Origin: Methylophaga sp.
GTDB lineage: Bacteria > Pseudomonadota > Gammaproteobacteria > Nitrosococcales > Methylophagaceae
DNA length: 64,000 nucleotides
Reading direction: 5' to 3'
Assembly: GCA_026988435.1 (NCBI GenBank)
Contig: JALSLH010000005.1
Location: 22,831 to 86,830, forward strand
Both the position numbers and the translations under genes were made by a program. The first letter of the stretch is position 1. The number at the start of each line of letters is the position of its first letter. Positions 5,312-38,739 of the stretch are shown piece by piece. A model generated the notes under the pieces. That model ran no database searches. It saw only the letters and a list, made by a program, of their open reading frames with translations, and was not told where the DNA came from.

Positions 5312-8300
5312 ATGTATCGCAAACTTCTCACTAATACGGTTCTAGTTAACCTTACTTTCTTGCTTGTTGTTATCGCAGGCTGGATTAGCTACACCTCGAT
5401 GCCCCGCGAACAAGATCCCGATGTGAATTTTAACTGGGTCGTTATTAGTACTTCTTGGCCGGGTGCAACAGCTGAAGATGTTGAAAATCAAATTACCAAC
5501 CCTATCGAAGATGAGATTGAAAAAATACCTGATGTAAACAGGGTATCAAGTAGTAGCCGTGTTTCATTTTCATTTATTACTGTGCGCTTTGCTGATATGG
5601 AGCCGAGTTTATTTCGTCAGCGTGTCGAAGAAATGCGCCGAGGCATTCAATCTGCCGTTGACAATCTTCCTCCTGATGCAAAACAGCCACTCGTTACTGA
5701 GCTGTCTAGCTCAAACACCTACCCAACCGCCGTTATCACTGTTTCGGGCATCGAAAATGATGAGCTGTTGCGCAAAACATCTCGCAATATTGCAAAAGAT
5801 ATTGCGCGCATAAAAGGTGTTGATCGTGCTGACACGTGGGGTACAGAAGATCCTGAATTACAGGTACATTTCAGTCCCGAAAGTTTAATTGGCTTAGGTG
5901 TATCACCTACTGTTTTGTCTAGCACTGTAAATGCCTACTTTAGAGATCTTACCGCAGGTAGCATTCAACTCGGTGAACAGCAGTGGCGGGTGAGACTCAG
6001 CGGCACAAGCAATGACCCTAGCTATCTTGCTGAACTACCCATTTTAACAGTCGAAGGAGAGCTTCCTCTTCGAAGTGTTGCAACCATTATTCGCGGCCAA
6101 GAAAAGCCCGAACAGCTAGTTTCGTATGACGGGCGCCCAGCCTCGATGATCTCTGTATTTAAGCGAGGCAATGCCAACAGTCTTGCGTTGCTGGAAAACC
6201 TGCAAGCCTATGTCTATGAACGTAATTACACTTTAAATGGTCAAGGGATCCAGCTTGATATTGTTGACGATCAAACAGTAGCAACACGTACCGCTATCGG
6301 CATGATGGAAACAAATGCCGTCATTGGGCTTCTTCTGGTTATGCTGGTAACAGGGTTGTTTTTGGGTTGGAAAATTGCTCTCTTTACAGGTATGGGACTG
6401 ATCTTTTCACTGATGGGATCATTTTGGATTTTATCTGCCATGGGCGAGACTTTAAACATTATGGTCTTGCTGGGTGTCGTCATTGTTTTAGGAATGTTGG
6501 TTGATGATGCTGTGGTGGTGGTTGAGTCTATGTACGTCAATCTCAGAAAAGGCATGTCGAGCACAGAAGCCGCAATGAGCACCGTCAATGAAATGTGGGT
6601 TCCGGTTATGGTGTCATCGCTTACTACCATTGCCGCATTTTTACCGCTTATTCTATTGCCCGGTATTTTGGGACAATTTATGCGAGTAGTGCCCATTGTC
6701 GTTTCTGTTGCCCTAGTGGTAAGCTTGATTGAGGCCTTTTGGTTGCTTCCTTCACATATTATTTTCTCAAATACGGATCCTGCAAAAATCACCTTTATAC
6801 AACGCATGCGTAACCGTGTAACAAACTGGATTCGTCACCGCTATGTAAATGTACTCGTTCCTGTGATGCGATTTCCTAAAACAAGTATCTCTATTGGGGG
6901 CTTATTAAGCTTATTAGCCGTGTTTGCCGTAACAACTAATGTGGTTCGAGTTGACTTTTTTGCTAACGATCCTATTCGCTTGTTTTACCTTAATGTCTAT
7001 ATGCCCGCCGGTAGCTCCCTGAGTAGTACTGATGAAACACTGAAAAATCTTGACCTGAAGATTCGTCATTCAGTTGATGCCAAAGAGCTTCGCTCTATCA
7101 CAACAACGGCAGGAGTCTTGCTCACCGAAACGGAACCTCTATTCGGCGATAGCATGGGACAAATCATGTTTAGCCTACCTGCTAGAACCGCAGGTTTAAT
7201 GTCTGTTGATGAATTAATTGAACAGGTTCGACTTGCCATTCAAGATGTGCCCGGACCAACAGATCTATCCTTCTTGCGTCGCAACACTGGGCCGCCAAGT
7301 GAGAGCCCCATCAGTGTCAAAGTGCGCGGTGATAAAATAGACCAATTACGCCTTGCTACGGCGGCATTAGAAGATATCATGGCAACAATTCCCGGCATCC
7401 AAGATGTTCACAGCGATGATGCCAGCTCAGGTGCACAGCTCACGCTTAAGCTCGATCCTGATGCCATTACTCGGGCTCAACTTAACCCTGCTGATATTGC
7501 AGAAATTTTACGCCTTTATGTTGATGGCTCCATTGTTGCCAATATGCGGTTTGAAGGTGAAAAATGGAACGTCCGCGTGCGGGCAGAACCTCATCCGTTA
7601 CAAGATATAAAATCATTTTTAAGTCACCCTGTAGGCCTAGCGGACGGTAGCGAAATTGCTTTAGAGCAGCTCGTCACTTATTCGTCAGCCTATGCAGAAG
7701 GCACCATACATCATAGAAACTTTAGACGCACCATCACACTAGAAGCCAATCTTGATTCTGAACTTAATAACAGTATTTCTGCAAACGACCAAATTGCCGA
7801 TAAATGGCAAGAAATTGCTGATAAATATCCTGATGTCACATTAGATTTTTCAGGTGAAATGGATGATATAAAGGAAAGCCTAAATGGCATGGCCGTACTG
7901 TTTTTGTTCGGTATAGGTTTAATTTATATGATCCTTGGCACACAATTCAAGAGTTATACCCAGCCTTTACTTATCCTTGCAACCGTTCCTATGGCCTTTA
8001 CTGGCGTTATTATCGGTCTAATTGTAAGCAATAATCCTCTAAGCTTATATACACTATATGGGGTAATTGCACTTGCCGGAATTGTCGCTAATGATGCAAT
8101 TGTTTTGGTCTCTACGGCCAACCGAAACCTTGCCAAAGGCATGTCGCTGGCTCACGCCATTGTCAAGGCATCACAACGCCGTGTAATGCCAATTTTAATC
8201 ACTACCGTCACCACGATGGCCGGCCTATTTTCTTTAGCTTCGGGCTTGGGTGGAAAATCACTGATGTGGGGGCCGTTAGCCACGGCAATCGTTTGGGGTT

Positions 8301-8846: not shown

Positions 8847-8923
8847 TGGCGGAGCGGACGGGATTCGAACCCGCGACCTCCGGCGTGACAGGCCAGCATT
8901 CTAACCAGCTGAACTACCGCTCC
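8847..8923 (-). tRNA. tRNA-Asp (anticodon GUC)
   Basis: The reverse complement is GGAGCGGTAGTTCAGCTGGTTAGAATGCTGGCCTGTCACGCCGGAGGTCGCGGGTTCGAATCCCGTCCGCTCCGCCA. It has a cloverleaf, a CTGTCAC anticodon loop, a GGTTCGAATCC T-arm and an encoded CCA. It is near-identical in layout to E. coli tRNA-Asp. Confidence 0.95.
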
Positions 8924-26280: not shown

Positions 26281-26306
26281 GTAGGAGCGGCTTCAGCCAC
26301 GAATAG
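26281..26306. repeat. REP-like unit gtaggagcggcttcagccacgaatag
   Basis: Internal palindrome GCGGCT/AGCC(A)C. Two inverted copies of the same unit lie at 35925-36009. Confidence 0.7.
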
Positions 26307-29867: not shown

Positions 29868-32800
29868 ATGACTAGATTAGTTTTAAAAAATAAATTTTTA
29901 TCGCTAAAACAACAACTTCACCAATTGAAAGCCAGTGTTTTTCTGGTCACGGCAATGGTGTTTTCAAATAGTGTTATTGCTATCGATATAGCCCAAAGCC
30001 CTTTATTTATAGATCATTCAGCCACGCCGAACATTATGTTTATACTAGATGATTCCGGTTCAATGGATTTTGATATTCTCGCCGTGCCGCACTGGCGCGC
30101 GCAAAATTATGACCATGATGTTATGCGCTATTGGGCACAAGGCGGTTGGCTGGGCTGGTCAGACACGCCTACGGGTAAAATTACAGATGCTACATGGCGC
30201 TCTTATACCGGTTATTGTAATGACAGAAATGCAGATGGTATTTGCTATAACGAGCTATATCTGAACAATGATAATGATCGAGATGATAATGAAAAAACAT
30301 TGATTGCACCGGTCGTGGCTAATGATGATTGGGCTTTAGTATTACAACATTGGTATTTTTGGGAGTATCCTAAAGGCTATTGTCAAATGCCAAGTGGCGG
30401 GCCATCGTTGCCAGATGCCGGTGATTGGTTACCCAGTCTAGATAAGGTTTTTACCTTTTTAACAGGTTCAAAGCAAGCTTATGCACATTCGGGTGATTTT
30501 GGCCCGAGTAGCAGTCCTTATCAATGGAAAGCAACAAGCAACAATCCAAACGCACAAAACACAGGTGGTGCAGGCGCATATAGACAAGAAGTATGGCAAG
30601 ATAAAGGCCCGGAGCGCAACACATGGGATGTTGATAATGAATATTACAATAATGCAACACCTAAGACGACATGTGAAGGCAATGGCGGCACCTGGAAAAG
30701 GGATACAAGTTACAATTATAGAGTACTTCATCATGGGAAATATTCATACGGTGGTGTAACTACCCACTCAGATTGGGATGATGATTGGGATAGTCCTGCA
30801 CCGGTAATTAATCCTCTTACGGGCGTAATAACAGCAAATGGCCCACTTAATAGCAACACCGGTGATTACCACTATGAATACAAAGTAAACTATACGACAG
30901 CCACAACAGGTAGAGACCGTTTTGATATTAATGGTGACGGAGTAGGTAACGATATCTATTACCAAGAGAAGGATGTTCAGAGCGATAGGGTTGTTAATTA
31001 TCGTTATATTCAACATTTAACGGATAATACCTATCCTCGTGCGGACTGGCATGCCTGTGGTAATACCAGCAACACCAACTATTGGATGGCAACCAATGCC
31101 TGTGCACCATTAAATAGCACAATGCCGGGCAATTATCCTGTGGCATCGCCTAACAGCCCGATAGATAATCCAAGCAATAAAGTTGCACAAAGTTTTTATA
31201 ATAAAGGTAAGACAGATTTTGTACAGCTAGGTAACCCTGCAATCGTTCCTAGGTATATCCGCTCACTGGATTGGGTGGGGTCACCCCGCACCCCTAATTC
31301 GGATGTGTTGATGCCGCCTTGGGCTGCTAGTACAAAACATGCGATGAGCAAACATGATCCTTTCCCATTAGTCGTTGATTGGCGTGTACGTTCAGCAGAT
31401 TTCAATGTGATGTATTATCGCCCGGATAGTAAATATGAAGTGTGGGCAGATATTACAGAGGTGTTACCATTAGGCTGTCCCAATAAATTTTATTGTGCAC
31501 GTAGTAATCCGCAACCAGGCACGGCAGGCTATACCTTAATGGAAAATCTAGCCCGACCTAGAGTTGAATATGGTGCGGCAGGCGTCGCTCCAGTCAATGT
31601 TCAGGCTGGCTTTGTTTATGAGGTCTGGGTGGATGATGCGGGTCATTTGCCATCACGCACTAGACCAGAATGGATTTTAGGAGATACTAATTGTGGTTCA
31701 ACGGGTGGTTATACCATCACTGCAGCAGATGTTGCTGCCAGTTTTGGCGGCGCAGGCGTGGTGGATCCTGCGACAGGTATAACTTATAGCGCTGGTGAAC
31801 ATATTTGCTTTAGTTATTTAAATAAAGATCCAAGTGGTAATGCCGGTGATGGCGAGGTTGATTTATGGGATTCACACTACCGGGTTGAAGTGCGTGATGC
31901 GGATATTGTTGTACAAAAAGTGCGCCGTACACCACACTTAAAAGGTGAGTCATTATATAGTGCAACAGCCCCAGGCGGTACACCACCTGTTTATACGGTT
32001 GGCTCACACAATTATTGGTCAGGACCTGCTGGTTATGCGGCGATGAGAGTAGCAATGTCAGATACGCGGGTGTTAAGCACAACGACATATACTCCGGCAA
32101 ATTACGCAACGTATTCTTCTAGCGCCTTATGTTTGAAATTATTAGGCGAAGACTCAGCTAACCCGGGTAACTGTCGAACGCTTGCTCAGGTTAAAGAAAA
32201 TGCGGCCAACTGGTATCAATATAGCCGCAAACGTTCATTTGTTGCTAAAGGTGCAATAGGCTTATTGATGGCAGAAATCCCTGATGTAAACTATGGCTTA
32301 ATGGGTACCAAAAAGCATAACAGTGATAATATTTCCTCTTTATTCAGAGATGTATTCGATGGTAATGGGTCTGGTAATGGTGATGCTGATAGAAACACAC
32401 ATAATGATAATATTCGAAGCGCACTATATAGCTATGTTTGGCCTGCTACAGGAACGCCTTTACGTCGTGCATTAGAGCGTGCAGGTGAATACTTTGCTGG
32501 TCGTGGCCCTAATTTGGGCGCAGGTGTAAACAATCACTCTATTAGCCCGATTATTGAAAGTTGTCAGAAAAACTATGCCATTATGTTAACTGACGGTTAT
32601 TGGAATGGAAGCGATCCAATCGGGGTGACGAATGAAGATGGTGATGCCTTTGGCGCGGCTTATAACGGCACCTTAGCCGATGTGGCGAAAAAGTATTATG
32701 ATGAAGATCTTCGCCCTCTTTTACCTAATGAAGTGCCAACAGATGATGCCTTTGATACCAATAACCAGCAACATTTAACAACGATAGGCATTGGCTTTGG

Positions 32801-35225
32801 TGTTTCAGGTTCACTAGTGGATGATCCTGATCCGTCAACGGCCCCGGCTGAAGATGGCTGGCCTGGCAACCCTGATGCATCAGGTGCCTCTGTGTTGACC
32901 GAAACTTCAACATGGGGAGGCGATCCAAAACCCAATTCAAATGCGGCCTTTAAAATCGATGATTTATGGCATGCTGCATATAATAGCCGAGGCAGATATT
33001 ATAAAGCTGATAACCCGGACGAATTAATTTTACAATTAAAAGCGGCCATCCTTACTGCACTAGCAGCATCAGGTTCAGCAAGTGCATTAACAGCGAATGC
33101 GAGCGTGTTAACGGGCACAACGCGGGTGTATCAAACGCTTTTCAAAAGTGATGAGTGGTCAGGCGAGGTTAAGGCTTATAGTTTGACGGCTTCTGGTTTA
33201 ATTAATTCGACGCCAATATGGACAGCTGAAAACCAGATAGCAGCTCCAGGGGCTCGGAAAATCTTTACTTTAGATGCTAGTGGCGCAGGCGCCTCGTTTA
33301 GCTGGGCTGCATTGAGCCCTAGTCAGCAGCTTTTGCTTAGAAAACGCTGGGTACCAAATGTGCTAGAAAATGTAGCCTTTGGTCAAGCTCAGTTAGATTA
33401 TATACGTGGCCAAAGCGATGCTCAGTTTAGAGACCGAGCAGGTAAGAAACTAGGCGATATTGTTCATAGTGAGCCATTATATGTCGCTGAACCTAATCAA
33501 CTCTATCCTGATTCATGGGAAGCGGTTAATTATAGTACCTTCAGATCGGCGAACAGTGGTCGAACACCTATGATATATGTAGGTGCAAACGATGGAATGA
33601 TGCACGCTTTTGATGCCACAACGGGCGCTGAAAAGTATGCTTATATTCCAAGCGTTTTATTGCCAGACTTGAATGCGTTAAGCCATAAACCAAGTCCTGG
33701 CCAAGACTTTGTCCATCGCTATTATGTGGATGATACGCCAGTGAGCGGGGATGTGTTCTTTTCAGGTGCGTGGCATACCGTACTGGTTGGTGGCCTTCGG
33801 GCGGGTGGCAAAGGCATTTATGCTTTAGATATAACAACGGTTCCTGGTGGCGCTTCAGAAACGACAATTGCTGGCAATAAAGCATTATGGGAGTTTACTA
33901 CAGCCAACGATGTTGATATGGGTTACAGTTTTAGTCGCCCTAGTATTGTCAAATTAAATAATGGTGATTGGGGAGCAGTATTTGGTAACGGATATAATAG
34001 TGCTAACCATACTGCTGTGCTTTATATTGTTGATATTGAAGATGGATCCATTATTAAGAAATTTGAAATGGGAATAGGTAATAGTACTAATTCAAATGGG
34101 TTGTCAACGCCAACACTTGCAGACACGAATGGCGATATGATTGCTGATCGGGTATATGCTGGTGATTTATTAGGTAACGTTTGGACGATAGATATCAGCG
34201 ATGCAAATGAAGCGAACTGGAAGTTTAGTTATGACACACTTGCGGTATCGAATACTGCAGCGGCTAAAACACCGTTGTTTACGGCATCAGATGGTTCGGG
34301 TGGAGTACAAGCTATAACGGCTCCAATTGCGCTGAGTCGTCATCCTTATGGGCCGCTTGCAGGTTATCTCTTAAACTTTGGTACAGGTAAGTATGTAGGC
34401 TCGACAGATAACAGTGATACGGGCCAAACAACGCAATCAATGTATGGTATTTGGGATTACGGTGTTGCTGGTGTTACTAGGGGAGATTTACTTGAACAAA
34501 TTATAGAGTCTGATATATCTGCTTCGGGCATAGAAGTACGAGTGACATCTGCAAATGGACCGGTGAATTGGTTAAATGCAGGCCATAATGTGGGTGATGT
34601 TGGCTGGGAAGGTCAGGTTAATCAAAAAGGTTGGAGAATGGATTTAGTTGATACTAGTGCTGCTGGTACACCGCCACCTAATCATGGGGAACGCATTATT
34701 TCGAAAATGGTCATTATTGATGGAGCCATTATTTTCTCCACTCTATTACCGGCATCAGATCCATGTGATGGCGGGGGCAGTGGTTACACGATGGCATTAA
34801 TTGCGGCAACAGGCTCTCGCTTTGCGGCATCGCCGTTTGATATTAATGGTGACGGTTTATTTTCTACGGCTGATTTTGCTGATATTGACAATGATGGGAC
34901 TGCAGATACGGCGATTAGTGGGGTAAAATCGACAGCAGGTATTCCAAGTGTTCCGCTAATATTATATAAACCAGGAGGCGGAATGGTATCTATTTCAGAT
35001 CATAGTTCTGGTGGCCTAGTTATGGCAGGGCCCTCAACGGCAGGGACGGCAACATGTGTCGTTAGCGGAGGAACGGGATCTTGTACGGTTATACCAGGGC
35101 CGCCACCGACATGTACGATGGTGGGGACTGGAACCTGTACTGTAACCGGGACGATACCAGATGGAACAGGTCCCTTAAATGGTCTTTCAAGTAAGGGCCG
35201 TCAAAGCTGGAGGCAGTTGGAGTAA
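29868..35225 (+). CDS. pilY1: PilY1-family tip adhesin, unusually large (1785 aa), with a split vWA domain and C-terminal beta-propeller
   Basis: MIDAS DxSxS (MFILDDSGSMD, residues 57-67). The remaining vWA elements (TGTPLRRALERAGEYF, NYAIMLTDGYWNG) appear only about 800 residues later. The PilY1 C-terminal propeller carries a Ca-binding loop, DTNGDMIADRVYAGD. The terminal motif is RQSWRQLE. Confidence 0.85.
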   Translation: MTRLVLKNKFLSLKQQLHQLKASVFLVTAMVFSNSVIAIDIAQSPLFIDHSATPNIMFILDDSGSMDFDILAVPHWRAQNYDHDVMRYWAQGGWLGWSDTPTGKITDATWRSYTGYCNDRNADGICYNELYLNNDNDRDDNEKTLIAPVVANDDWALVLQHWYFWEYPKGYCQMPSGGPSLPDAGDWLPSLDKVFTFLTGSKQAYAHSGDFGPSSSPYQWKATSNNPNAQNTGGAGAYRQEVWQDKGPERNTWDVDNEYYNNATPKTTCEGNGGTWKRDTSYNYRVLHHGKYSYGGVTTHSDWDDDWDSPAPVINPLTGVITANGPLNSNTGDYHYEYKVNYTTATTGRDRFDINGDGVGNDIYYQEKDVQSDRVVNYRYIQHLTDNTYPRADWHACGNTSNTNYWMATNACAPLNSTMPGNYPVASPNSPIDNPSNKVAQSFYNKGKTDFVQLGNPAIVPRYIRSLDWVGSPRTPNSDVLMPPWAASTKHAMSKHDPFPLVVDWRVRSADFNVMYYRPDSKYEVWADITEVLPLGCPNKFYCARSNPQPGTAGYTLMENLARPRVEYGAAGVAPVNVQAGFVYEVWVDDAGHLPSRTRPEWILGDTNCGSTGGYTITAADVAASFGGAGVVDPATGITYSAGEHICFSYLNKDPSGNAGDGEVDLWDSHYRVEVRDADIVVQKVRRTPHLKGESLYSATAPGGTPPVYTVGSHNYWSGPAGYAAMRVAMSDTRVLSTTTYTPANYATYSSSALCLKLLGEDSANPGNCRTLAQVKENAANWYQYSRKRSFVAKGAIGLLMAEIPDVNYGLMGTKKHNSDNISSLFRDVFDGNGSGNGDADRNTHNDNIRSALYSYVWPATGTPLRRALERAGEYFAGRGPNLGAGVNNHSISPIIESCQKNYAIMLTDGYWNGSDPIGVTNEDGDAFGAAYNGTLADVAKKYYDEDLRPLLPNEVPTDDAFDTNNQQHLTTIGIGFGVSGSLVDDPDPSTAPAEDGWPGNPDASGASVLTETSTWGGDPKPNSNAAFKIDDLWHAAYNSRGRYYKADNPDELILQLKAAILTALAASGSASALTANASVLTGTTRVYQTLFKSDEWSGEVKAYSLTASGLINSTPIWTAENQIAAPGARKIFTLDASGAGASFSWAALSPSQQLLLRKRWVPNVLENVAFGQAQLDYIRGQSDAQFRDRAGKKLGDIVHSEPLYVAEPNQLYPDSWEAVNYSTFRSANSGRTPMIYVGANDGMMHAFDATTGAEKYAYIPSVLLPDLNALSHKPSPGQDFVHRYYVDDTPVSGDVFFSGAWHTVLVGGLRAGGKGIYALDITTVPGGASETTIAGNKALWEFTTANDVDMGYSFSRPSIVKLNNGDWGAVFGNGYNSANHTAVLYIVDIEDGSIIKKFEMGIGNSTNSNGLSTPTLADTNGDMIADRVYAGDLLGNVWTIDISDANEANWKFSYDTLAVSNTAAAKTPLFTASDGSGGVQAITAPIALSRHPYGPLAGYLLNFGTGKYVGSTDNSDTGQTTQSMYGIWDYGVAGVTRGDLLEQIIESDISASGIEVRVTSANGPVNWLNAGHNVGDVGWEGQVNQKGWRMDLVDTSAAGTPPPNHGERIISKMVIIDGAIIFSTLLPASDPCDGGGSGYTMALIAATGSRFAASPFDINGDGLFSTADFADIDNDGTADTAISGVKSTAGIPSVPLILYKPGGGMVSISDHSSGGLVMAGPSTAGTATCVVSGGTGSCTVIPGPPPTCTMVGTGTCTVTGTIPDGTGPLNGLSSKGRQSWRQLE

Positions 35226-35924: not shown

Positions 35925-36009
35925 GTGTTGGAGCGGCTTCAGCCGCGAACAGCCAAAAACCAACAAAATGGTTTCTTGCATCTTTTCGCGGCTGAAGCCG
36001 CTCCCACAC
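35925..36009. repeat. Inverted pair of REP-like units
   Basis: gtgttggagcggcttcagccgcgaa (35925-35949) is the reverse complement of ttcgcggctgaagccgctcccacac (35985-36009). Confidence 0.8.
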
Positions 36010-36108: not shown

Positions 36109-36852
36109 TTAATTTACGGAAGCCCTATCAGGCAAAAACCGTGCACTAAATAATCCCAATTCAAATAGCAGCCAAACCGGCAGTGCTAACAACGTTTGTG
36201 AAATGATATCAGGGGGTGTGAGTAACATGCCCAATACAAATGCGCCTACGATGATGTAAGGCCGCTTCTCAGCCAAGCTTTCAACTGTTGATACGCCCGT
36301 CCAGATTAATAAAAGCGTCGCAATGGGCACTTCAAATGCCAAGCCAAAAGCAAAAAATAGCTTTAACACAAAATCTAAATAGCTACTTATATCCGTCATA
36401 ATAGCCACGCCTTCAGGTGCGGCTTGGGTGAAGAAGCCGAACACGAGTGGGAATACCACAAAATAAGCAAAAACAATCCCTAAAAAGAACAATAATGTGC
36501 TGGCAAATAATAGTGGAAAAACTAATTTTCGTTCGTTGTCATACAAACCGGGGGCGATAAAAGCCCAGAGCTGATAAAGCAAAACAGGAATGGCTAATAA
36601 AACGGAGATACTTAGGGTGAGTTTAAAAGGAATTAAAAATGGCGAGGCCACTTCAGTTGCGATCATGGTGCTTGATTCGGGTAAGTGGCGCAAAAGTGGC
36701 TCTGCTAGAAAGTGATATAAGTCATTTGAAAATGGTAGTAAACACGCGGCAATAATAGCGACGGCTAAAAGCCCTCGCAACAGGCGATCACGGAGCTCGA
36801 TCAGGTGTGAAATTAAGGGTTGCTGATTATCGGTCGTCATTGTTCTTTTCAA
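36109..36852 (-). CDS. tatC: Twin-arginine translocase subunit TatC
   Basis: 6-TM protein. The N-terminus [20 protein letters not shown] is the TatC signature. The start is 36852 or 36840. Confidence 0.95.
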
Positions 36853-37156
36853 TGGGGTCAGACTCGACGGGTTTTTTGAGTGTGTCTTCTGTAGAACTTT
36901 CTTTTAATGATGGAGATGCTATCGAATTTTCTCCCGTTGTAAGCCCATCCAAATCAACTGTTTTATTCAAAGCTTGTTTGAGTTCCTCAGCACGCAATTC
37001 TTGAGATATTTCATTTCGAATAGATTGTATCGAAGAATTGGCGCGGCCAATCCACAAGCCGGTTACACGTACTAGTTTAGGCAGGCGTTCGGGCCCGACC
37101 ACAACTAGGGCCACGACGGCAATTAAGAACAGCTCCCAGAAACCGATATCAAACAT
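36827..37156 (-). CDS. tatB: Twin-arginine translocase subunit TatB
   Basis: [30 protein letters not shown] is the canonical TatB N-terminus. The C-terminal residues ESDPIEK are encoded by a half copy of the palindromic element found in hisI. Confidence 0.9.
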
Positions 37157-37955: not shown

Positions 37956-38272
37956 TATTTGCTCCGGTTTGCTTTTTCTTCTAGCCCAGACAAGCCAAAG
38001 CGACGATCAAGTTCATCAAGGATGATTTGTGGTTCAATATTGTTATGCGCTAGCAAGACTAAACTATGAAACCATAAATCTGCGGTCTCATAAATAATTT
38101 CGTCACGATTGCCACCTTTGCCTGCAATTATTGTTTCGGTTGCTTCTTCGCCTAATTTTTTTAATATTTTATCAGTGCCACCATGATAAAGGCTGGCAAC
38201 ATATGAACTGTCAGGGGAGGCTTGTTTTCGTTCTTCAAGAATTTCTGCAAGTCGGTTCAATACGTCACTCAT
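37955..38272 (-). CDS. hisE: Phosphoribosyl-ATP diphosphatase
   Basis: 105 aa. [28 protein letters not shown]...[13 protein letters not shown] is the HisE/MazG-like pattern. Confidence 0.9.
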
Positions 38273-38739
38273 TTGTATATCTCTTTAGGATCTTTAATTA
38301 TAGCTTCAACAATGCGCCACTTCTTTTCAATGGGGTCAGACTCGATTGATTTATCCTTGCTCGCTTTCCGCAGCGCCGCCGCCGCTTGTAAATCAATCGA
38401 GTCTGACCCCATTGAAAGATCTAGCTGTTGATAAAAACAATGATGCCTTCCAGTATGACAGGCAATGCCACCCTTTTGTTCGACTTCTATCAAAATTGCA
38501 TCACTATCACAGTCTAGACGAATGGATTTTATCAGCTGTTGATTGCCAGATTGCTCACCTTTGTGCCAGATTTTCTGGCGTGAACGCGACCAATAAACAG
38601 CATGTCCGGATTCTACGCTGAGGCGTAAGGCTTCTCTATTCATCCATGCTAAAGTGAGTACTTGCTTCGTTTTAGATTCTTGTGTAATAACAGGCGCAAG
38701 ACCGTTGCCATCCCATTTAACTTGATCTAACCAGTCCAT
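38269..38739 (-). CDS. hisI: Phosphoribosyl-AMP cyclohydrolase carrying an in-frame repeat insertion
   Basis: The HisI core is [37 protein letters not shown]...[12 protein letters not shown]. At 156 aa it is about 25-30 aa longer than monofunctional HisI proteins, because of the element at 38325-38417. Confidence 0.9.
38325..38417. repeat. 93-bp palindromic element inserted in frame within hisI
   Basis: The perfect 28-bp arm tttcaatggggtcagactcgattgattt (38325-38352) is the reverse complement of aaatcaatcgagtctgaccccattgaaa (38390-38417). 93 bp equals 31 codons. In HisI it encodes [31 protein letters not shown]. It also reads open on the opposite strand (ORF 38222..38431). Confidence 0.9.

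Follow-up and report, generated by a model that had tools for sequence, protein, structure and literature searches.

A probable REPIN-like doublet of a transposase-associated repeat family, read in frame within hisI of Methylophaga sp.

The biosynthetic gene hisI in a stretch of 64,000 nucleotides from Methylophaga sp. (assembly GCA_026988435.1, contig JALSLH010000005.1; the whole stretch is referred to as the window) contains a 93-bp palindromic element. This element very probably represents a head-to-head doublet of repetitive extragenic palindromes (REPs), which is non-autonomous, resembles the REPINs (REP doublets forming hairpins), belongs to a family linked to REP-associated tyrosine transposases (RAYTs) or the so-called TIRYTs, and is read through in HisI. 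The assignment is based on direct observations, namely the anatomy of the element, its membership in a repeat family, the association of this family with a transposase gene, an insertion polymorphism at hisI, the retention of the reading frame and the conservation of the arms.

A repeat search delimited two arms of 29 nt each, which are 100% complementary and lie 35 nt apart (Table 1). On the plus strand the region 38325-38417 consists of TTTCAATGGGGTCAGACTCGATTGATTTA, 35 nt and TAAATCAATCGAGTCTGACCCCATTGAAA, and the 29-mer had no match in 100 dinucleotide-preserving shuffles of the window. Folded as single-stranded DNA the element reached -37.7 kcal/mol (z = -10.2 versus shuffled controls), folded as RNA -64.8 kcal/mol (z = -12.4). 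Within each arm lies an imperfect palindrome of 25 nt, (A/T)TCAATGGGGTCAGACTCGATTGAT, and the inverted pair with its short spacer can form a long hairpin, as is typical of REPINs. An earlier note on this DNA had described a palindrome with arms of 28 nt; the palindrome is real, inserted and repeated, the arms, however, measure 29 nt. The note had further treated the 93-bp element with its 28-bp arms as the mobile unit, which had to be given up: the unit is probably the 25-nt REP, which also occurs singly, in arrays and on both sides of a Y1 transposase gene. No target-site duplication was found: the sequences next to the element, CTTCT on one side and AGATC on the other, do not repeat each other in direct orientation. 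An Rfam scan of the whole window at the gathering threshold returned only a tRNA at 8850-8923, the hairpin matching no RNA family, and a terminator and promoter scan around the element revealed no terminator-like tail after the hairpin and promoter-like matches at chance level only.

The insert comprises 31 codons (HisI residues 108-138) and includes the peptide SMGSDSIDL. Its translation was found in the minus-strand open reading frame (ORF) 38269-38739 exactly as written in the earlier note, which was also correct in stating that the insert is in frame and that both strands are open: the strand opposite hisI carries an ORF at 38222-38431, which encodes a near-identical peptide that reads ...KSIESDPIE. 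Two of the three REP frames are open in each orientation (SMGSDSID and QWGQTRLI; SIESDPI and QSSLTPL), and the third contains a TGA. Since, moreover, the length is a multiple of three, read-through is not improbable.

For the definition of the repeat family, one genome per species was scanned for the exact 18-mer core CAATGGGGTCAGACTCGA. The following family figures rest on the at least 120 loci listed from about 98 assemblies; as only about 17 matches were expected by chance, the copies are real. The core occurs in Gammaproteobacteria, in Betaproteobacteria (Nitrosospira, Nitrosomonas, Methylophilaceae, Gallionellaceae and Sulfuricella) and in Zetaproteobacteria (Mariprofundaceae), furthermore in an alphaproteobacterial metagenome-assembled genome (MAG), a few Bacteroidota, Gemmatimonadaceae, Binatia and Entotheonella bins. 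The odd-taxon hosts may in part reflect binning contamination. As about 98 genomes from several classes and phyla contain this identical core, the element is not confined to the present lineage, contrary to what had been supposed earlier. The consensus aATCAATGGGGTCAGACTCGATTGATtt was derived from 206 copies, and the unit is thus a short imperfect palindrome present in many copies, as expected of a REP. Conservation ends at 25 nt and the sequence beyond is random; the 3' TTGAT, which was outside the query, is conserved to 85-95% among the 206 aligned copies. Several MAGs contain two or three separate REP loci each.

The REP unit was found singly, in tandem arrays and as head-to-head doublets. 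Among pairs less than 160 nt apart, 35 were head-to-head (+/-) and none was tail-to-tail (-/+). Apart from these close pairs, plus and minus copies were spaced 775-832 bp apart in 12 of the loci. In several doublets, namely at L012 100-156 and L092 3812-3868 (both from one MAG of the Salibacteraceae), L002, L062 and L117 (L and P numbers denote listed loci and proteins), the palindrome reaches 4-8 nt past the REP into locus-specific sequence, e.g., TGCTTTTTCAAT...ATTGAAAAAGCA, and within one MAG the same doublet is also present with its spacer inverted. These features hint that the doublets either entered hairpins that were already there or were formed by inverted duplication.

Each of the 12 intervals of 775-832 bp holds a single gene, encoding a Y1/HUH transposase of about 235 aa; the REP thus frames this gene on both sides in opposite orientations, the arrangement known from RAYT genes. 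Altogether the transposase gene was detected by tblastn in 26 of the 120 loci listed. The protein matches the Pfam family Y1_Tnp ('Transposase IS200 like'). A single RAYT sequence compared with the PDB (phmmer) gave no match, and only a profile of 28 members reached a solved structure: the best relative was the Escherichia coli TnpA-REP (4ER8, E = 0.0033), followed by the ISDra2 TnpA. The alignment with 4ER8 is full-length and brings the HUH motif and the tyrosine region Y-x-x-x-NP into register. The 5' REP is located about 50-60 nt before the transposase ATG, and the stop (...KINRV-TGA) falls inside the 3' REP (L023 1796-2590; L038 3690-4482; L069 1601-2403), so that the last residues of the transposase are encoded by the repeat on which it presumably acts. 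The protein family is very large: no fewer than 7,995 members were counted at E < 1e-30. It includes the protein P0188 of a Methylophaga MAG, whose gene has an identical REP 56 nt upstream and no 3' REP. Plasmid carriage was considered as a cause of the wide spread and rejected, as the transposase was found in only 20 of 72,556 plasmid records, all with less than 60% identity. As a side observation, genes near the RAYT gene, such as ftsY in L023, gain spurious N-terminal extensions which contain a 10-residue peptide.

Comparison of HisI sequences confirmed that the segment is an insertion. Close orthologues have 126 aa and lack it; their site reads CFYQQL-VDGQ-WQ, which corresponds to a net gain of 30 aa in the window. 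Most of the 120 best HisI homologues, several of them named Methylophaga or Methylophagaceae, likewise comprise 126-129 aa without the segment, which bears out the earlier expectation that most orthologues lack it. At the same hisI site the doublet is present in the window and in four further proteins, P0001 (97% identical), P0002 (82%), P0003 (77%) and P0004 (72%), while two HisI proteins (P0005 and P0019) contain a single REP, read as SIESDPIE. On the nucleotide level, the doublet structure recurs in L001 (4386 nt at 100% identity), L122, L123 and L124, all from assemblies other than that of the window. The single-REP form corresponds to a doublet from which 66 nt have been lost between two direct TCAAT pentamers. 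L124 and L126 also show short duplications of CCCCATTGAAAA and ACCATTGAA. All occupied alleles have identical junctions, replacement of the VDGQ codons, a net gain of 90 nt and a 35-nt spacer, and the spacers retain blocks of similarity such as CAAGnGGCGGnGG and CAAAAGAA. Because of these common features the occupied allele most likely arose once. One metagenome, ERZ23498676, contains both a doublet allele (P0003; L123) and a single-REP allele (P0019; L126) with protein cores 92% identical, and both hisI states thus coexist in one community. Further hisI alleles can be sought in metagenomes with the string form TCGAGTCTGACCCCATTGA-N(12-24)-RTARAARCARTGRTG.

Several points weigh against the assignment. 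The GTAG/GTGG head of classical REPs is absent from the consensus, which fits GGGGWSAS instead. Support by the NCBIfam model REP_Tyr_transpos is marginal, one transposase copy scoring 81.1 bits and another 71.2 at a cutoff of 80. In the 64-kb window no such transposase gene was detected by tblastn, and the window holds only one full doublet and one relic doublet. Doublet spacers across genomes are unrelated and vary between 3 and 143 nt among the loci listed, so that either the doublet or the single REP may be the moving unit. Finally, a tree of the HisI core, in which the occupied hisI alleles are not monophyletic but interleaved with empty ones, speaks against a single origin of the insertion, a conflict for which recombination is a plausible answer.

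Evidence pointing in this direction came from the comparison of L122 (doublet) and L127 (empty). Identity between the two is 90% in hisF, 90% in hisE and 92% in the HIT gene, whereas within hisI it amounts to 82% in the 5' part and 75% in the tail. As the drop is confined to hisI, one of the two has probably acquired this gene as a recombinant patch. The pattern indicates that related Methylophaga-like lineages have probably swapped a patch the size of hisI through homologous recombination, and such an exchange of alleles could account for the patchy distribution of the insert. Simple vertical descent of one ancient insertion was rejected in view of the non-monophyletic occupied alleles and the mosaic identity profile.

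Four doublet-bearing hisI alleles (window, L122, L123 and L124) were then compared site by site. In the REP arms only 2 of 58 sites are variable. The spacer has the same length in the four alleles and varies at 27 of 35 sites (77%), spacer identity between the alleles being 37-63%. Elsewhere in the gene, variable sites make up 85 of the 126 third codon positions (67%) and 56 of the 252 first and second positions. None of the 20 third codon positions within the arms has changed (P about 2e-10 given the rate elsewhere in hisI), so it is the DNA sequence and not the peptide that is under constraint.

A contrast is provided by a relic doublet in tatB (36827-37156, minus strand), which spans 36846-36939, next to the tatC start at 36852. 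In the window one arm still has 21 of 25 matches and its partner is barely recognizable. The tatB doublet of L127 has 22/25 and 19/25 matches and reads ISMGSDSID...SIKPDPIEK with a 69-nt period; in L125 one arm is reduced to 14/25, the partner is lost and only SMGDNTIA is left. Part of the TatB tail in the lineage of the window is accordingly repeat-derived, judging from these alignments. Since the tatB doublet is decaying in all three lineages compared, arm constancy is not automatic for intragenic copies. Our best guess is that the hisI arms are kept constant by homogenization against other REP copies or by continued use by the transposase. The wider scenario is offered only tentatively: an active process (transposase-dependent or conversion-type homogenization) or selection on the hairpin might keep the arms, while the spacer drifts neutrally and the allele moves among Methylophaga-like lineages by recombination.

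If true, a 'live' REPIN would have resided for a long time in a biosynthetic gene, with a 25-nt repeat that is conserved across phyla. Models of REPIN maintenance must explain constant arms amid near-saturated DNA, be it by conversion, transposase activity or a host function. The locus offers a natural experiment in this respect, as doublet, single REP and empty state are found at one site in related lineages, with the synonymous sites of the coding flanks as a neutral clock and the tatB relic as a control undergoing decay.

If lineage-specific REPIN variants had recently inserted independently of each other at one hot spot in hisI, no conservation mechanism would be needed. Y1 transposases of the IS200/IS605 type choose short specific targets, and the empty hisI site contains CAATGG, which resembles the REP start. 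The interleaving of occupied and empty alleles, the low identity of the spacers next to identical arms and the decay of the tatB arms, by which intragenic arms are seen not to be protected automatically, would all follow from repeated insertion. We nevertheless consider it unlikely: junctions and VDGQ replacement are common to all occupied alleles, the gain of 90 nt and the spacer of 35 nt are the same in each although spacers elsewhere range from 3 to 143 nt, blocks of spacer similarity are retained, and the drop in identity between L122 and L127, restricted to hisI, points to allele exchange.

It is also improbable, in our estimation, that the element was exapted, i.e., that selection keeps the arms for a host function of the hairpin or the peptide, such as an mRNA structure setting hisI/hisE expression, an RNase III site, a site for gyrase or integration host factor (IHF), or a surface extension of HisI. 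REPs of E. coli have been reported as DNA sites for gyrase or IHF. The arms are much more conserved than the synonymous sites of hisI, the constraint with no synonymous change at 20 third positions lies on the nucleotide level, a perfect RNA stem of about 30 bp is located about 50 nt upstream of the hisE start, and the insert is modeled with fair confidence as an ordered hairpin extension. Most close relatives, however, lack the insert, half of which has been lost in two alleles; selection for structure would permit compensatory changes, of which none was seen; the stem lacks a terminator-like tail; and this REP shows no variation across phyla, whatever its location, a pattern more simply tied to the transposase.

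It is very improbable that the element, in line with the framing of the earlier note, belongs to a family of Rickettsia palindromic elements (RPEs), or that it is a classical miniature inverted-repeat transposable element (MITE) derived from an insertion sequence with a DDE transposase: a palindrome of about 100 bp, in frame and open on both strands, agrees with it, but there is no target-site duplication, the arms are autonomous 25-nt repeats found singly and arrayed, the linked gene is of the Y1/HUH and not of the DDE type, the hosts are free-living Proteobacteria and others rather than Rickettsia, and the CGTC tag, which Di Nocera 2013 (PMC3733652) assigns to rickettsial repeats, is absent from the 25-nt unit. 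An assembly artefact has a practically negligible chance, for although fold-back chimeras can yield long perfect palindromes, the same doublet was found at the same site in L001, L122, L123 and L124, which stem from other samples and assemblers and have diverged in flanks and spacers.

For the preferred reading as a transposase-associated REP doublet the following course of events can be proposed. By analogy to the IS200/IS605 family and to E. coli TnpA-REP, the transposase would act in trans, recognize the REP hairpin on single-stranded DNA and cut and rejoin it without target duplication, whereby REPs and doublets would be dispersed. The doublet would have landed in the codons of the C-terminal hairpin turn, at the site which reads L-VDGQ-W when empty, and the gene would have stayed intact owing to the length being a multiple of three, the open state of two of three REP frames and the solvent-exposed position of the turn. 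HisI would thereby have gained about 30 residues, predicted to lengthen the hairpin. Subsequently the occupied allele may have spread among related Methylophaga-like lineages by homologous recombination, and in some lineages it was presumably cut to a single REP by the 66-nt deletion between the direct TCAAT repeats.

An AlphaFold2 model of HisI, built on 121 sequences, had a mean predicted local distance difference test score (pLDDT) of 79, and its best structural matches were the HisI structures 7bgn and 1zps. In the model the insert lies at the turn between the last two beta strands, i.e., the C-terminal beta hairpin, with a pLDDT of 74-85; the hairpin is longer and capped by a short helix derived from the spacer. 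The earlier proposal of a surface loop after the Cys/His cluster is reasonable in the light of this position. Moreover, frame and spacer length are kept among alleles whose flanks are only 70-83% identical, and the ATGA overlap with hisE is intact. For these reasons hisI probably still works, and the insert would be tolerated and translated in vivo. The likeness to RPEs in read-through was well observed in the earlier note, as the in-frame and open insert behaves alike.

Descriptions of REPs and REPINs place them almost entirely outside genes; their long-term persistence and their link to a single-copy RAYT are debated. The present family is predominantly extragenic as well, with the hisI copy as an exception: among the loci listed, 30 of 208 copies (14%) lie inside ORFs extending at least 40 codons to both sides, versus 381 of 580 random positions (66%). 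The statement that the element colonizes coding sequences was thus an overstatement. Further in-frame cases comprise a doublet in Dxr of a Rudaea MAG (L002), where it falls within the DXP_redisom_C domain, one in a UvrA-like protein of 1,905 aa (L107), one in an ABC ATPase of a MAG of the Gemmatimonadaceae (L110), located between its two ABC domains, and two in a LapA-like adhesin (L041). Together with hisI and the TatB tail, these are insertions in frame in open genes, as known for RPEs. A composite query of 52 aa from REP-encoded peptides, compared with a set of 5.8 billion proteins, resulted in five candidates and one match. For annotation this means that REP-encoded peptides such as QSSLTPL in proteins and small 'hypothetical' ORFs of many Proteobacteria are repeat-derived and do not represent a protein motif.

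Table 1. Positions of the hisI element, its host gene and the tatB relic in the window.
Feature	Position	Strand	Remarks
hisI (phosphoribosyl-AMP cyclohydrolase), 156 aa	38269-38739	minus	host gene; ORF list, Pfam PRA-CH, PDB 1zps match
Head-to-head REP doublet (REPIN-like, probable), 93 bp	38325-38417		repeat search, shuffles, folding; absent from 126-aa orthologues
REP unit 1, 25 nt, TTCAATGGGGTCAGACTCGATTGAT	38326-38350	+	within arm 38325-38353
REP unit 2, 25 nt, inverted	38392-38416	-	within arm 38389-38417
Spacer, 35 nt, GC-rich centre	38354-38388		encodes 12-residue peptide
Relic REP in tatB, 21/25 matches	36848-36872	+	encodes ...PVESDPIEK; C-terminal tail of tatB by tatC start; 22 nt identical at 36846-36867
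Decayed partner arm in tatB	36915-36939	-	encodes TTGENSIA (SMGSDSID in L127); alignment with tatB of L127 and L125

The host gene is clearly identified: Pfam PRA-CH covers HisI residues 30-103 (E = 2e-33), and PDB 1zps is 48% identical to the HisI of the window over the core. It is part of the gene row hisH-hisA-hisF-hisI-hisE-HIT-tatA-tatB-tatC, in which the hisI start adjoins hisF and the hisI stop overlaps the start of hisE (ATGA). Upstream of the tat cluster an ORF of 1,785 aa is located at 29868-35225 (+), whose counterpart in L127 has a T4P_PilY1 (PilY1) Pfam match. The window also contains another repeat family, GTGTGGGAGCGGCTTCAGCCGCGAA, which is unrelated to the first and has the GTGG head of classical REPs. 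It forms a head-to-head doublet at 35925-36009, in the convergent gap downstream of tatC, with an extra copy at 26284-26303; L127 carries a doublet of the same repeat just downstream of tatC (5475-5606).

There is an established literature on REPs, REPINs and RAYTs (Nunvar 2010, PMC2817692; Bertels and Rainey, 2011, PMC3116915; Bertels 2017, PMC5581495). With the REP systems, bacterial interspersed mosaic elements (BIMEs) and REPIN-RAYT systems of E. coli (TnpA-REP, 4ER8), of Pseudomonas fluorescens (REPINs of Bertels and Rainey) and of Nunvar 2010 the present family has in common a short imperfect palindrome as repeat, head-to-head doublets with long hairpins, and clusters. Further common traits are the Y1/HUH gene between inverted repeats, the lack of target duplication, the mostly extragenic location and TnpA-REP as best solved relative. 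The transposase, with about 235 aa, is longer than the TnpA-REP chain in 4ER8 (165 aa) and has a conserved C-terminal extension which ends with ...KINRV in the 3' REP. In contrast to REP/REPIN-RAYT systems, in which the repeats usually differ from one species to the next, the REP is identical across classes and phyla, and the spacers of its doublets show no conservation from genome to genome. The exact repeat string was not found in a literature search, which gave two unrelated eukaryotic papers, and is absent from the main texts of PMC2817692 and PMC3733652.

According to Di Nocera 2013 (PMC3733652), the TIRYT tyrosine transposases differ from RAYTs in length and amino acid signatures. They are flanked by inverted repeats which share GGGGWSAS, are partly self-complementary and are arranged singly, as dimers or in clusters ('TIRtrons'), with moderate copy numbers in a few genomes. 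The sequence GGGGTCAG, at the core of every copy, fits GGGGWSAS at the level of the motif. The very wide distribution seen here differs from the handful of genomes reported there. Bacterial MITEs (Correia/NEMIS elements and enterobacterial repetitive intergenic consensus sequences, ERIC) resemble the hisI element in being small, non-autonomous and readable through with the addition of a peptide. They have, however, terminal inverted repeats with target duplications and are DDE-derived, and the hisI element exhibits neither feature.

The closest precedent for the intragenic position is provided by PMC3733652, in which REPs wholly within ORFs are reported, mostly of known proteins and including many DNA-repair genes such as uvrA. 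In the passages considered hisI is not mentioned as a target, and Di Nocera 2013 likens the intragenic REPs to RPEs. The behaviour is thus not new, whereas the earlier note knew of no description of it for this lineage; a REP read through in a gene is unusual but already documented. Common to these cases and ours are palindromic repeats in frame in genes which are probably functional, and the uvrA target there corresponds to the UvrA-like protein of L107 here. With regard to RPEs, repeat family and hosts differ from those of the hisI REP, and a transposase gene is associated with the REP family here, whereas none is known to be linked to RPEs. Judged by the missing CGTC tag, there is no sign of membership in an RPE family. 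The earlier reading as an RPE-like palindrome in frame was right in spirit though not precise, and the element is better regarded as a REP doublet of a very widespread RAYT/TIRYT-associated family, which is analogous to RPEs without being one.

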